Shown here one piece after another: positions 449-63,468 of a stretch of 64,000 nt of DNA; positions within the stretch are counted from its first letter, which is position 1, and each line of letters opens with the position of its first letter. The notes under the pieces were generated by a model. The model was not told the origin of the DNA. It saw nothing but the letters and a program-made list of their open reading frames with translations, and did not search any database. Source of the stretch: Eledone cirrhosa. Its lineage: Eukaryota. The position numbers were made by a program, and so were the translations under genes. The stretch lies in NCBI GenBank assembly GCA_964016885.1, contig OZ024751.1:7006001-7070000 (forward strand). The letters run 5' to 3'.

Positions 449-498
449 GAACTGCATACACTAATGTTTCTGGGTATCACCCTTCATCAGTACAGTTT
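449..498 (-). ncRNA. Type I hammerhead ribozyme
   Basis: Minus strand reads actgta-CTGATGA-a-ggg-tgata-ccc-a-GAAA-cattagtg-TA-tgcagt: stem I actgta/tgcagt, stem II ggg/ccc, short stem III, GUA cleavage triplet. Confidence 0.8.
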
Positions 499-574
499 TC
501 TGTTCACCTGCCAGCTGTCAGAGCTAGTGAAAATATATGATATTTTCTAAAATATACAGTGGATGACATGCCTG

Positions 575-661
575 ATTTGCATATTAGCAGACTGGCTGAT
601 CAGCCAGGTCTGCATATTTGCATATCCACTGATCAGCCACATTTGCATATCAGCAGATTGG
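575..661. promoter_or_regulatory. Cluster of three octamer motifs (ATTTGCAT) plus a CCAAT box, upstream of the minus-strand HHR
   Basis: ATTTGCAT at 575-582, 616-623 and 641-648; ATTGG at ~657-661. Confidence 0.45.
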
Positions 662-2594
662 TGGCCAGTCAGTTTCCAGTATACGAGCGATGAATGGCCG
701 GCTTTGCTATATTCAAATAAAAATATTTTATATATATGTATATATATAGGTATATGTCAGTATCTATGACTATATGTATATATGTCTATACATCTATACA
801 TCCGTATATCTCTCTGTCCTTGTGTGCGTGTGCGCGTGCGCGTGTGTGTGTGTGTATGCGCGTGTGTTTATATAAACACATATATACTGGTAGAAGTACG
901 ACTTCTAACCCAATCACCACTACCACTACCAAATTCTACTAACGTCAACACAACTAAATAATAATGTGTTAGACTCTATGCTGAAACATGACTTCGATGA
1001 CGGACTGAGAATCATTTGTATCTGATTTGAATTAAATGACTATCGTGTGTTATAGACCGGTGATTTTATTTGTTTCCTTATAATGTATCTAAGAAGGATT
1101 GGAGTCACAAAGACATTCAGAATTAAACATATTCATAGAAGGTTAAGCATCATACTACGTACGATGCTTATACTCTTAAAGGAAGTTGTTTCCTTGTTTA
1201 TTAGAATTTAGCGTGTTTTATTGGTATGAATACATTACAATATTTTCATATTAATAACCAAGACATCTCTCCGTATTAATGAATATTCGTGACAAAATGC
1301 AGAAACTTTAATCATATTTGAAAGAAGATATCAAGCACCGCTGGAAAACATATTTAGTATGCCAATATGCTGGAACTAGATATCACGTTTAACAGCTATT
1401 TTTTGCCGATAAGCCGAAGGAACAGTTAAGATCGTACCTACAAATAGATATAAATTCCTCTCAGTCATATCACATATGCATTTGATATAAAATACTACAT
1501 CGGGTTATCAGTCTGAATGTTGATATTTTAAATTGTTTAATTTACACTGCATAATTAGGTTCTCGGGTCTAGAAAATTTGCATTCTCTGATAAATTAAAA
1601 AAAGAATGATTGAATTTAAAATTTAAGCTGACATTTTGTTCTTGAACTTCTCATTTATATTATTTAATGCTAAAAATTACCATATCACATTAATTTGTGG
1701 TTTGCATTACAATCTGAGGGCCGTATGTTTGTTTAAATACACTGATTCGATGTTTCACGATTCGCATTATATATATGACACCCTACAAGATATAATATAT
1801 TAATGTTTGTTTGGTAGGTTTGAGGATAATGTGCATATGTCCTCTGACATGCTGCTGTATATATAGTAAATGTAATGCTGTGTACGTCACATAAACAGAA
1901 ATATTTCAGTTGGAAGTTTTAACATTAACCACAACACATAAATATATGAAACAAAAACGCACACACACACAACAAATACGTAGTGCTCCTGTCAGTATTA
2001 CCAGTGATAGAAAACACGTCGAATTATTCGGTCTTGGTAATATTGCAGGCTGTATATGGAAAGTAACTAATTATATATGGAATTGCAAATGTATTGATTG
2101 CAGTTAAAATGCGTATGAATTTTATTGATTCTAGGTAAACTATACAATTGTAATAAATATATATTTCTTTTTGAATCAAGTCAAGATGAATCGTAAGGCA
2201 AATATTATTTTCATTACATTAATGTGTTTCAAATTTATCGATGATTATTGCTAACATATTTAAAGTTAAGGCAATTAAAACGATGAAATGCTATGAGAAT
2301 ACATGTCGTCAATATTTTTACTGATATATATTTATAATATTTACATTAGTATTTGATGTGGAAGCGGTGAAATATTGATTGAATTTACTGGATGATATTC
2401 CAGAATTTAATACACCATATGTTATAACAATGTCTTTAGTCTACTACATAGCTCCGTGGTAACATACTCCTGATATATCATCATAATTGGAGAGGCACGT
2501 TATATTCAACATAGAGAACATGCAGCAGCTAACATTTTATTATCGCTCTAATTTCAATTTAAAAGAAATGAGATTTATTTTCATTATCTCTCGT

Positions 2595-60248: not shown

Positions 60249-60287
60249 GATATATATATATATATATATATATATATATATATATAT

Positions 60288-63224
60288 ATATAGATAATTT
60301 AATATATCAACTAACATAAGCGCACAGATGCACGCCCATGCCAGCAAATACACAGGTTATGTCATAGTACCTAGGTGGTTCAATGCAGGAGAATGCAGAA
60401 CAATTGTTCTGCATTCTCCTGCATTGAACCACCTAGGTACTATGACATAACCTGTGTATTTGCTGGCATGGGCGTGCATCTGTGCGCTTATGTTAGTTGA
60501 TATATTAAATTATCTATATTTATCTCCAAATCACTGATTTGTCGAGCAAACTTGTCAAAACCACTTCTAAAAAAATTTTTTTTGGGGTGTTAGTAGGCGT
60601 CAGTCATCTTACCATCCCATTCCTTCTAACTAGCCTCTGTGTCACGTGATTGATTCTTTAGAATCGGCCATTTGACTTGAAGCAGTGAGAATTTCGGTAC
60701 ATTGAATTCAGTCCTCGCAAGCTGTTCGATCTACCGAATTATTATTATTTTTATATGAGCCGCCAGTGTCCGCGCATTGCCTGGAGACTTAACTGAGAAT
60801 AGACTTCCTGATGACGCAATGAATTCTCGACAGTTGGATTACATAACTGTCTTTATCCCATTGCAGAAACTAATTAGTTGGAGTGAAAATTTAAGTAAGA
60901 AAAAAATTTTTTTTTTTTTAAATTTTTTTTAAAGAAATATTTTCTTATTTTACGTCCTTTATATTATTGTTCTGCATTCTCCTGCATTGAACCACCTAGG
61001 TACTATGACATAACCTGTGTATTTGCTGGCATGGGCGTGCATCTGTGCGCTTATGTTAGTTGATATATTAAATTATCTATATTTATCTCCAAATCACTGA
61101 TTTGTCGAGCAAACTTGTCAAAACCACTTCTAAAAAAATTTTTTTTGGGGTGTTAGTAGGCGTCAGTCATCTTACCATCCCATTCCTTCTAACTAGCCTC
61201 TGTGTCACGTGATTGATTCTTTAGAATCGGCCATTTGACTTGAAGCAGTGAGAATTTCGGTACATTGAATTCAGTCCTCGCAAGCTGTTCGATCTACCGA
61301 ATTATTATTATTTTTATATGAGCCGCCAGTGTCCGCGCATTGCCTGGAGACTTAACTGAGAATAGACTTCCTGATGACGCAATGAATTCTCGACAGTTGG
61401 ATTACATAACTGTCTTTATCCCATTGCAGAAACTAATTAGTTGGAGTGAAAATTTAAGTAAGAAAAAAATTTTTTTTTTTTTTTTTTAAATTTTTTTTAA
61501 AGAAATATTTTCTTATTTTACGTCCTTTATATTATTGTTCTGCATTCTCCTGCATTGAACCACCTAGGTACTATGACATAACCTGTGTATTTGCTGGCAT
61601 GGGCGTGCATCTGTGCGCTTATGTTAGTTGATATATTAAATTATCTATATTTATCTCCAAATCACTGATTTGTCGAGCAAACTTGTCAAAACCACTTCTA
61701 AAAAAATTTTTTTTGGGGTGTTAGTAGGCGTCAGTCATCTTACCATCCCATTCCTTCTAACTAGCCTCTGTGTCACGTGATTGATTCTTTAGAATCGGCC
61801 ATTTGACTTGAAGCAGTGAGAATTTCGGTACATTGAATTCAGTCCTCGCAAGCTGTTCGATCTACCGAATTATTATTATTTTTATATGAGCCGCCAGTGT
61901 CCGCGCATTGCCTGGAGACTTAACTGAGAATAGACTTCCTGATGACGCAATGAATTCTCGACAGTTGGATTACATAACTGTCTTTATCCCATTGCAGAAA
62001 CTAATTAGTTGGAGTGAAAATTTAAGTAAGAAAAAAATTTTTTTTTTTAAATTTTTTTTAAAGAAATATTTTCTTATTTTACGTCCTTTATATTATTGTT
62101 CTGCATTCTCCTGCATTGAACCACCTAGGTACTATGACATAACCTGTGTATTTGCTGGCATGGGCGTGCATCTGTGCGCTTATGTTAGTTGATATATTAA
62201 ATTATCTATATTTATCTCCAAATCACTGATTTGTCGAGCAAACTTGTCAAAACCACTTCTAAAAAAATTTTTTTTGGGGTGTTAGTAGGCGTCAGTCATC
62301 TTACCATCCCATTCCTTCTAACTAGCCTCTGTGTCACGTGATTGATTCTTTAGAATCGGCCATTTGACTTGAAGCAGTGAGAATTTCGGTACATTGAATT
62401 CAGTCCTCGCAAGCTGTTCGATCTACCGAATTATTATTATTTTTATATGAGCCGCCAGTGTCCGCGCATTGCCTGGAGACTTAACTGAGAATAGACTTCC
62501 TGATGACGCAATGAATTCTCGACAGTTGGATTACATAACTGTCTTTATCCCATTGCAGAAACTAATTAGTTGGAGTGAAAATTTAAGTAAGAAAAAAATT
62601 TTTTTTTTTTAAATTTTTTTTAAAGAAATATTTTCTTATTTTACGTCCTTTATATTATTGTTCTGCATTCTCCTGCATTGAACCACCTAGGTACTATGAC
62701 ATAACCTGTGTATTTGCTGGCATGGGCGTGCATCTGTGCGCTTATGTTAGTTGATATATTAAATTATCTATATTTATCTCCAAATCACTGATTTGTCGAG
62801 CAAACTTGTCAAAACCACTTCTAAAAAAATTTTTTTTGGGGTGTTAGTAGGCGTCAGTCATCTTACCATCCCATTCCTTCTAACTAGCCTCTGTGTCACG
62901 TGATTGATTCTTTAGAATCGGCCATTTGACTTGAAGCAGTGAGAATTTCGGTACATTGAATTCAGTCCTCGCAAGCTGTTCGATCTACCGAATTATTATT
63001 ATTTTTATATGAGCCGCCAGTGTCCGCGCATTGCCTGGAGACTTAACTGAGAATAGACTTCCTGATGACGCAATGAATTCTCGACAGTTGGATTACATAA
63101 CTGTCTTTATCCCATTGCAGAAACTAATTAGTTGGAGTGAAAATTTAAGTAAGAAAAAAATTTTTTTTTTTTTTTTTTTTAAATTTTTTTTAAAGAAATA
63201 TTTTCTTATTTTACGTCCTTTATA
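60288..63224 (+). mobile_element. Five near-identical ~563 bp non-coding HHR monomers in tandem, preceded by a 116 bp spacerless inverted copy: retrozyme-like array
   Basis: Units start at 60404, 60967, 61535, 62096 and 62658 and appear to differ only in poly-T length. Palindrome centre gcagaacaa|ttgttctgc; (TA)n on both flanks. Confidence 0.93.
60803..60884 (+). ncRNA. Type I hammerhead ribozyme (identical copies at 61366-61447, 61934-62015, 62495-62576, 63057-63138)
   Basis: acttc-CTGATGA-c-gcaatg-aattctc-gacagtt-ggattacat-aactgtc-tttatcc-cattgc-a-GAAA-ctaattag-TT-ggagt. Palindromic stem III ACTAATTAGT, GUU triplet. Confidence 0.87.
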
Positions 63225-63319
63225 TATATATATATATATATATATATATATATATATATAGTGGTAGAACACTGGAAGGTAATATCCGTAGTGGTAGAGC
63301 ACTCAGTCCATGGGACGAG

Positions 63320-63468
63320 TTATGTAGAAGTGGTTACACAACAGTTAGTTCACCTTACCGAGAACAATTGCTTCACCTTAGCCGATCCATTACGAGCTGA
63401 GGCTCCGCTAAGGTGAAACAATTGTTCTCGGTATGGTGAACTACCTGTTGTGTAACAACTTCTATATA
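63320..63468. mobile_element. Small fold-back with a minimal HHR (63393-63430, plus)
   Basis: cgag-CTGAGGC-t-cc-gctaa-gg-t-GAAA-caattg-TT-ctcg. The inverted arm reads ggatc at the same position, implying an ancestral CTGAGGA core. Confidence 0.62.

Follow-up and report, generated by a model that had tools for sequence, protein, structure and literature searches.

We analysed a 64-kb stretch of the Eledone cirrhosa genome (contig OZ024751.1), hereafter the window, which holds hammerhead ribozyme motifs of at least 17 families together with the remains of Penelope-like elements (PLEs): six broken PLE coding pieces (E5k, E18k and E56; E46, E12k and E43) and, at 60308-63220, an array of five non-coding 562-bp units that each carry a type I hammerhead (Table 1). 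An earlier note on this DNA, made from its letters, had listed 35 hammerhead sites from more than a dozen elements, and on both counts it was right: all listed sites are hammerhead-derived and lie within a few bases of the positions given, which for many minus-strand sites are the low end. We consider it probable that these motifs are type I hammerheads at the 3' ends of PLEs and of their retrozyme offshoots, where they would cut the element RNA through a paired, self-complementary stem III.

The type I core (CUGANGA or its U3-A8 variant, GAAA and UH, with stems I and II) is intact at 19 of the 35 sites, and the other 16 are genuine relatives with lesions in core, stem I or stem III. The 24 sites described as closed by stem I comprise 17 intact motifs, six lesioned ones (5155, 21149, 24316, 34380, 45389, 54464) and one (43932) with a stem I of 2 bp; two of the five U3-A8 sites are intact (28671, 29162) and three damaged, including 23161 with GCAA for GAAA, while the six sites labelled as damaged are all true lesioned relatives. 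Damaged hammerheads at 53629 and 53731 and several half copies had been missed. A CTGAGGA motif at 8957-8990 (+), which sits in a short internal repeat of the E5k 3' region, was rejected as a hammerhead because GAAA is absent.

We searched both strands with a strict descriptor (CUGANGA or UUGANAA core, GAAA, UH, stem I of at least 4 bp, a stem II of 2 bp or more spanning no more than 150 nt, and a stem III that is perfectly palindromic), which matched 14 CUGANGA and two UUGANAA motifs in the window. Comparison with shuffled DNA, proposed at the outset as a refuting test, came out clearly in favour of the motifs: the means in 120 dinucleotide shuffles of the window (3x40; block sizes 200, 1000 and 64000) were 0 for CUGANGA and 0-0.025 for UUGANAA. 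With the stem III requirement dropped, the window and 119 genome stretches yielded 110 matches, among them 67 perfect palindromes and 15 palindromes with G-U pairs, against nine matches in total, one of them self-complementary, in 20 shuffles. Two family alignments, of sequences selected by descriptor, showed two-sided compensatory changes in 5 of 13 predicted pairs and in 8 of 25, respectively, and the alignment of a younger family did so in just 1 of 25. The motifs are real hammerhead-derived sequences, far above chance, and of a kind already known from PLEs and retrozymes. That a relaxed descriptor matches AT-rich DNA full of repeats by chance would agree with the silence of Rfam, where cmscan of the window at E<=1 gave 146 matches and none to a hammerhead family, and with the fact that shuffles also match once one core mismatch and low scores are allowed; the motif at 35678, described below, may be such a case. 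The shuffle controls nevertheless rule out a chance origin of the intact sites, and with a similar contrast in random genome samples (41 against 0-2), a fixed position within PLEs and covariation in stems I and II, this explanation keeps hardly any probability. That strict descriptors miss such motifs, as had been predicted, is true of Rfam, and annotation based on it overlooks much ribozyme sequence (0 of 19 intact motifs detected). Pfam named 5 of 15 window frames and recognised GIY-YIG in one PLE piece, and repeat-finding over the window was dominated by TA runs.

The minimal type I hammerheads with palindromic stem III, which the earlier note had ascribed to PLEs by type, can be tied directly to PLE reading frames. 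The terminal repeats of E5k are 97.6% identical and both contain a hammerhead, and 28 of the 30 best genome copies of the E5k endonuclease are followed, about 1.2 kb downstream and on the sense strand, by the E5k hammerhead. For the E46 endonuclease, 25 of 30 genome copies have a hammerhead about 0.4 kb downstream. A 2.7-kb alignment connects E56 with the ATGCGCAT family, inverted arms connect E18k with ACGATCGT, and the first 12 letters of the U3-A8 motif were found at 13 of 20 E12k loci (in short flanks, with the orientation unverified per locus). Six families have a hammerhead in the terminal repeat of an element with reverse transcriptase and GIY-YIG domains; for the remaining window families no coding partner was identified. 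First-look searches returned 24,486-58,957 candidates per PLE query, figures that come from overlapping queries and are not copy numbers, and the families have many near-identical genome copies with open frames of 775-1167 amino acids. Judged from these sequences, the PLE families are young and abundant, and the genome offers intact frames of this length beside their own hammerheads and retrozyme passengers. The population in the window itself is PLE-derived, as claimed, but most of its copies are dead stubs; one block is not a coding PLE but a retrozyme array.

By motif, E5k is a PLE of the Hydra clade, because the features of its frame match the published definition of this clade: an intact 894-amino-acid frame of E5k type (genome copy L294) contains RWK, DKT, the CxCX5C linker, and CxxC and CxH flanking E and N. 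The label 'Nematis' was rejected for E5k, since the motifs fit Hydra. E18k and E56 are assigned to the same clade by similarity; the proteins of the three elements are in pieces 27-59% identical. Hydra-clade PLEs as presented by Craig et al. 2021 (PMC8557442), which include Hydra-1_Obim of Octopus bimaculoides, listed with element and hammerhead, share these motifs with E5k as well as the C-terminal GIY-YIG, the (TA)n target and the 3' hammerhead; they are generally under 3 kb, whereas E5k measures 4.1 kb. Their hammerheads often have U.U at the stem II base, and U.U occupies the 10.1-11.1 position in 20 of 42 distinct sequences from the outside relatives introduced below, so that a 10.1-11.1 pair other than G-C was rejected as a peculiarity of the Eledone cirrhosa genome. 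The other three pieces appear Neptune-like, by motif or similarity only. E46 has all three features, a C-terminal GIY-YIG with a CX2-5CxxC linker, DKG and GxKF, and E12k is 42% identical to E46; the linker is also found in E43, though with DKS and, in the reverse transcriptase, a long insert. Frames of the E43 family (L296, L297, L300) span 931-1167 amino acids and have an asparagine-rich N-terminal stretch. The long insert of this family lies between reverse transcriptase motifs 3 and 4, which is unusual where the endonuclease is C-terminal.

Hammerheads occupy a constant place in these elements: on the sense strand, downstream of the endonuclease frame by a distance fixed for each family, with 40-200 nt left to the element 3' end, which abuts (TA)n. 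The suspected association with (TA)n is real and polar, since a TA run lies within 150 nt on the 3' side of the predicted cut in 64% of 119 motifs, compared with 16% on the 5' side and 18% at random positions. The distances are family-specific and fall mostly into two groups (in E5k, for example, 54 or about 155 nt; in E46, 120 or about 168 nt), which fit two internal starts of reverse transcription and the PLE 'tail' described for the Anolis Poseidon element PAc (Frangieh et al. 2024, PMC11167929). As far as that account goes, PAc and our elements share two internal starts with a tail, an AT-rich target and a hammerhead in the terminal repeat; the tails here, by sequence, are about 45-120 nt long, depending on family. 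We propose that the PLE protein would nick (TA)n and that reverse transcription would begin downstream of the hammerhead, at either of two internal sites. Because copying would start just downstream of it, even heavily truncated copies should retain the hammerhead, and hammerheads would come to far outnumber whole elements, with many stubs and frequent inverted pairs. The majority of the window copies are decaying stubs.

By its anatomy, the 562-bp array is a non-LTR retrozyme (one without long terminal repeats) with the insertion signatures of a PLE. A genome search with the unit returned 246 matches from 40 scored places on many chromosomes, 97-99% identical among the matches listed; unit sequence is also present in contigs of four sequencing runs, which has no bearing on expression. 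The unit has a better fold than any of its 100 shuffles (z -3.7). Thirty fetched loci resolved into 16 distinct arrays, in which all 21 visible 3' ends lie 85 or 203-207 nt past the predicted cut and abut (TA)n, and each of the seven arrays with both 3' ends visible has one end of each distance class. Metazoan non-LTR retrozymes, so far as described (Cervera and de la Pena 2020, PMC7229834; Li, Clavereau and Pollet, bioRxiv 10.64898/2026.07.22.740005), likewise form dispersed arrays in which non-coding units a few hundred bases long follow one another head to tail and each carry a type I hammerhead, and a PLE origin has been proposed for them. To this picture our arrays add direct PLE anatomy, in the form of inverted arms, the (TA)n target and two fixed 3' ends separated by 120 nt, in support of the recent proposal that PLEs mobilise animal retrozymes.

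Copying of the arrays from an RNA circle is likely, as far as unit divergence can indicate. Units differ by 0.24 substitutions within arrays and by 1.78 between them (50 full units from 15 arrays, poly-A/T tract excluded), and in two arrays all units share a private substitution (387T in 4/4; 150A in 3/3, spanning both inverted arms), which points to a one-unit bottleneck. Tandem transcripts would provide two hammerheads, dimer cleavage would release unit-length RNA, and ligated circles, copied repeatedly, would give rise to arrays. The arrays could instead derive, without a circle and with passive hammerheads, from long multimer transcripts or from local DNA duplication and gene conversion: homogeneous parents would likewise yield homogeneous daughters, and variant sets such as 392C recur across several arrays. 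The bottleneck suggested by the private substitutions argues against such an origin and the fixed 3' ends on (TA)n against plain DNA duplication, and we regard it as possible but rather doubtful. Elsewhere in the genome, a second retrozyme family (L084, L097, L050), which the window lacks, forms arrays with units of about 311 bp, stem III ACGCGT and 6-7 motifs per stretch; retrozyme-like tandem units of about 590 bp (L087, L094) have the U3-A8 core TTGATAA and stem III ACTACGTAGT.

The predicted energy of stem III as a monomer hairpin is positive in 8 of 9 types, and the homodimer duplexes are predicted at -2 to -13 kcal/mol. With the monomer hairpin unstable and the two-copy duplex favoured, cleavage probably takes place in dimers, in line with what PMC4209133 reports for this class. 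Two copies would pair through stem III, whereupon the element RNA would be cut. Lunse, Weinberg and Breaker reportedly found in 2017 that small PLE hammerhead variants with a reduced palindromic stem III cleave as dimers. The idea that the palindrome serves as a family password was rejected, because ATATATAT is common to at least six clusters and different palindromes pair at 7-8 of 8 positions.

Several findings weigh against cutting by paired copies. Duplexes of AU-rich palindromes are weak (-2 to -3 kcal/mol), the folds of several monomers depart from the hammerhead shape, the G10.1-C11.1 pair is present in 9 of 41 random-sample matches, and the 5' truncation points of the retrozyme arrays lie off the predicted cut. 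The E43 family keeps core and stem II, with a stem I of 2 bp in 33 of 33 scored copies, and alignment folding for an alternative E43 stem I gave no hammerhead-compatible helix; in the 23161 family, GCAA replaces GAAA throughout. Two families have spread with motifs that are, by these lesions, defective. For PAc, Frangieh et al. 2024 (PMC11167929) report that catalytic mutants inserted normally in vitro and that no RNA-seq reads ended at the cut site. The amplification of the E43 and 23161 families would be expected if the PLE-borne folds were kept mainly for protein binding or template selection near the start of reverse transcription, with cutting slow, protein-assisted or dispensable; cleavage of PAc required the PLE protein and was dispensable for insertion in vitro (PMC11167929), and an unpaired C at pair 4 of stem II stays constant while adjacent pairs swap. 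Such a role, however, sits poorly with the catalytic core letters and the U3-A8 swap being retained in most families, with stem III self-complementarity across many different sequences and with sense-strand hammerheads in 53 of 78 outside relatives, and we judge it unlikely. Whether the hammerheads cut element RNA through paired stem III can be approached through natural contrasts (intact families beside stem-I-defective ones, motifs that have or lack the C mismatch, strong palindromes beside weak ones), which make the role of the PLE hammerhead directly testable.

Among 106 distinct stem II regions of at least 20 nt, a set weighted towards families fetched for study, pair 4 is unpaired in 75 (52 C.C, 14 C.U, 4 C.A), whereas positions 2, 3, 5 and 6 form pairs, of many types, in 92-102. 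The C mismatch is found in 11 of the 41 random-sample motifs and spans E5k, E18k and E56 despite the low identity of their proteins. As outside relatives we used 78 metagenome loci with a related protein (best segments 29-41% identical), of which 53 have a sense-strand hammerhead (68 matches against 6-9 in shuffles); among the 42 distinct sequences of these relatives, pair 4 is closed in 41, and inspection by eye of the Hydra hammerheads in file S2 of Craig et al. 2021 (PMC8557442) showed no C mismatch at this pair. Near-absence from both the outside relatives and the published Hydra table marks the mismatch as a lineage-specific conserved feature. The unpaired C is possibly a contact site; alternatively, it may have been kept by shared ancestry without function. 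In the literature searched, the coverage of which was incomplete, no publication dealing with a C-C mismatch of stem II turned up.

A random sample of sixty 10-kb stretches, drawn with weighting by length from 24 contigs that make up 93% of the 3.0-Gb assembly, contained 41 strict motifs in 599 kb, compared with 0-2 in six shuffles. The density of about 1 per 15 kb corresponds to 2.0x10^5 motifs per genome (bootstrap 95% range 1.0-3.3x10^5), with 15 of the 41 motifs coming from just two stretches with tandem arrays. Thirty-nine hand-spread stretches held 35 motifs in 390 kb and the window flanks 27 in 200 kb. By the random-sample rule the window has 18 motifs in its 64 kb, about four times the average, and the previously proposed rate of one hammerhead per 2 kb is therefore local: it describes a hot spot with damaged copies included, not the genome. 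A large and diverse population, by contrast, is what we found, with 30-37 sequence clusters among 151 motifs in 1.25 Mb sampled. The cephalopod origin that the earlier note thought probable is compatible with two weak protein matches named for octopods. Published hammerhead counts include about 5,000 in a mussel and 126,247 in the axolotl with its 28.21-Gb genome; the Eledone cirrhosa genome looks about 15-fold denser than that of the axolotl, a rough comparison since the descriptors differ. No genome-wide hammerhead count for a cephalopod was found in the literature searched, again with incomplete coverage.

The literature already describes minimal PLE hammerheads, cores of U3-A8 type, cleavage as dimers and retrozymes. 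The motifs described by Cervera and de la Pena 2014 (PMC4209133) resemble ours in type I topology, short stem I, palindromic stem III and the U3-A8 variant, and in occurring mostly as single truncated copies, with inverted pairs and many families per genome. They differ in a conserved G10.1-C11.1, which only a minority has here, and in number, with about 2,000-9,000 minimal motifs per genome against the roughly 2x10^5 estimated here; our motifs have stem II regions of up to 126 nt and, in one group, the conserved unpaired C at pair 4. What this study adds is the density, the PLE insertion signatures on retrozyme arrays, the unpaired C at stem II pair 4 and the two families spread with defective motifs. 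Taken together, and quite tentatively, these could describe the densest animal hammerhead population so far (about 2x10^5), in which the Hydra-type lineage would have evolved a new hammerhead subtype whose unpaired C docks the element protein or a partner ribozyme and gates dimer cleavage, and in which retrozymes would borrow two-site priming and be copied from RNA circles.

Table 1. Hammerheads, PLE pieces and retrozyme units of the 64-kb window (positions counted from its first letter).
Feature	Position	Strand	Basis or remarks
Intact hammerhead, stem III ACATTAGTGT	450..497	-	strict descriptor
Hydra-clade (by motif) PLE copy E5k	5131..9389	+	terminal repeats, frame, 3' hammerhead, (TA)n
E5k upstream terminal repeat, 123 bp	hammerhead core 5155	+	alignment; stem I mismatch
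E5k frameshifted reverse transcriptase and GIY-YIG frame	5511-8074	+	
E5k 3' hammerhead	9286-9340	+	predicted cut after 9335, (TA)n 54 nt beyond
Neptune-like PLE piece E12k	10628..13865	-	similarity; frame 12910-12048
E12k damaged U3-A8 hammerheads	10731; 13704	-; +	13704 in inverted arm
Two tandem units of ~1.3 kb, one hammerhead each	13892..16530	+	no reading frame found
Hammerheads of these units	15029; 16332-16405	+	damaged (C3 to U); intact
Hydra-type PLE E18k with inverted arm	16799..20996	-	frame 19808-17691
E18k intact hammerheads, stem III ACGATCGT	16848-16983; 20827-20946	-; +	stem II region 83-99 nt
Hammerhead stub	21092..21160	-	core 21149; single stem III mismatch
Same group as this stub	27876-27938; 36886-36951; 38361-38425	+	intact; intact; C3 to G
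U3-A8-type motif, GCAA replacing GAAA	23158..23195	+	change common to the family's other copies
Damaged hammerhead, stem III ATGATCAT	24263..24320	-	core 24316
Intact hammerhead	25601..25651	+	16-nt stem III able to fold as monomer
Damaged relative of 25601..25651	40301-40349	-	
Inverted pair, truncated U3-A8 family ends	28565..29268	both	
Intact hammerheads of this pair, stem III ACCGGT	28638-28675; 29158-29195	-; +	
Older single unit of retrozyme family	34253..34835	-	hammerhead core 34380, one stem III mismatch
Duplicated element	38802..40191	+	
Its intact hammerheads, stem III ACAATTGT	38880-39005; 39884-40007	+	stem II region 95-97 nt
Damaged member of U3-A8 family with long stem III	41899..41993	-	C3 opposite A8
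Neptune-like PLE piece E43	42703..44176	+	core and 6-bp stem II at 43932, stem I 2 bp
Inverted pair of truncated ends, stem III ATGCGCAT	44447..44748		intact hammerheads 44478-44548 (-), 44647-44717 (+)
Hammerhead cut off at stem I	45282..45393	-	core 45389; 32-nt duplication within stem II
Neptune-like PLE 3' piece E46, GIY-YIG	45432..46301	-	damaged hammerhead 45580 (U16.1 to A)
Inverted pair of truncated ends, ACTAGT family	53483..53877		damaged hammerheads 53629 (-), 53731 (+)
Hydra-type PLE E56	54372..57209	-	frame 57062-55603
E56 terminal hammerhead, ATGCGCAT family	core 54464	-	damaged stem III
Retrozyme array	60308..63220	+	short inverted arm, five 562-bp head-to-tail units, (TA)n on both sides
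Array hammerheads, all intact	60803-60884; 61366-61447; 61934-62015; 62495-62576; 63057-63138	+	
Inverted pair of truncated ends	63343..63446		damaged hammerhead 63397 (A9 to C)

Repeats of other kinds also occur in the window. A 1-kb repeat at 34998-36026 (-), inserted between A and T, starts with 5' TC and finishes with a 3' hairpin followed by CTAG, ends that are Helitron-like. Its opposite strand bears a hammerhead-like motif at 35673-35857 (+), the 35678 motif, with a 5-bp stem I, a long stem II and a 4-bp stem III, which is present in 28 of 30 repeat copies, in 12 of them in a shorter form with an 8-bp stem II; the hammerhead fold lies 6-8 kcal/mol above the best fold. This motif may be a chance match or a captured ribozyme and was not counted as a PLE-derived hammerhead. 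The segment 37474-37813 belongs to a repeat of about 340 bp that is very common, with 92-97% identity across many sampled loci, and includes a weak tRNA match at 37482-37539; it is likely a tRNA-derived short interspersed nuclear element, to judge by these features. Broken pieces of further mobile elements comprise a non-LTR retrotransposon with endonuclease and reverse transcriptase (Pfam PF14529, PF00078) at 57349-60162 (+), a non-LTR retrotransposon piece bearing a PHD finger at 26480-27301 (-) and DDE_1 (pogo/Tigger-like) transposase pieces at 30549-31955 (-).

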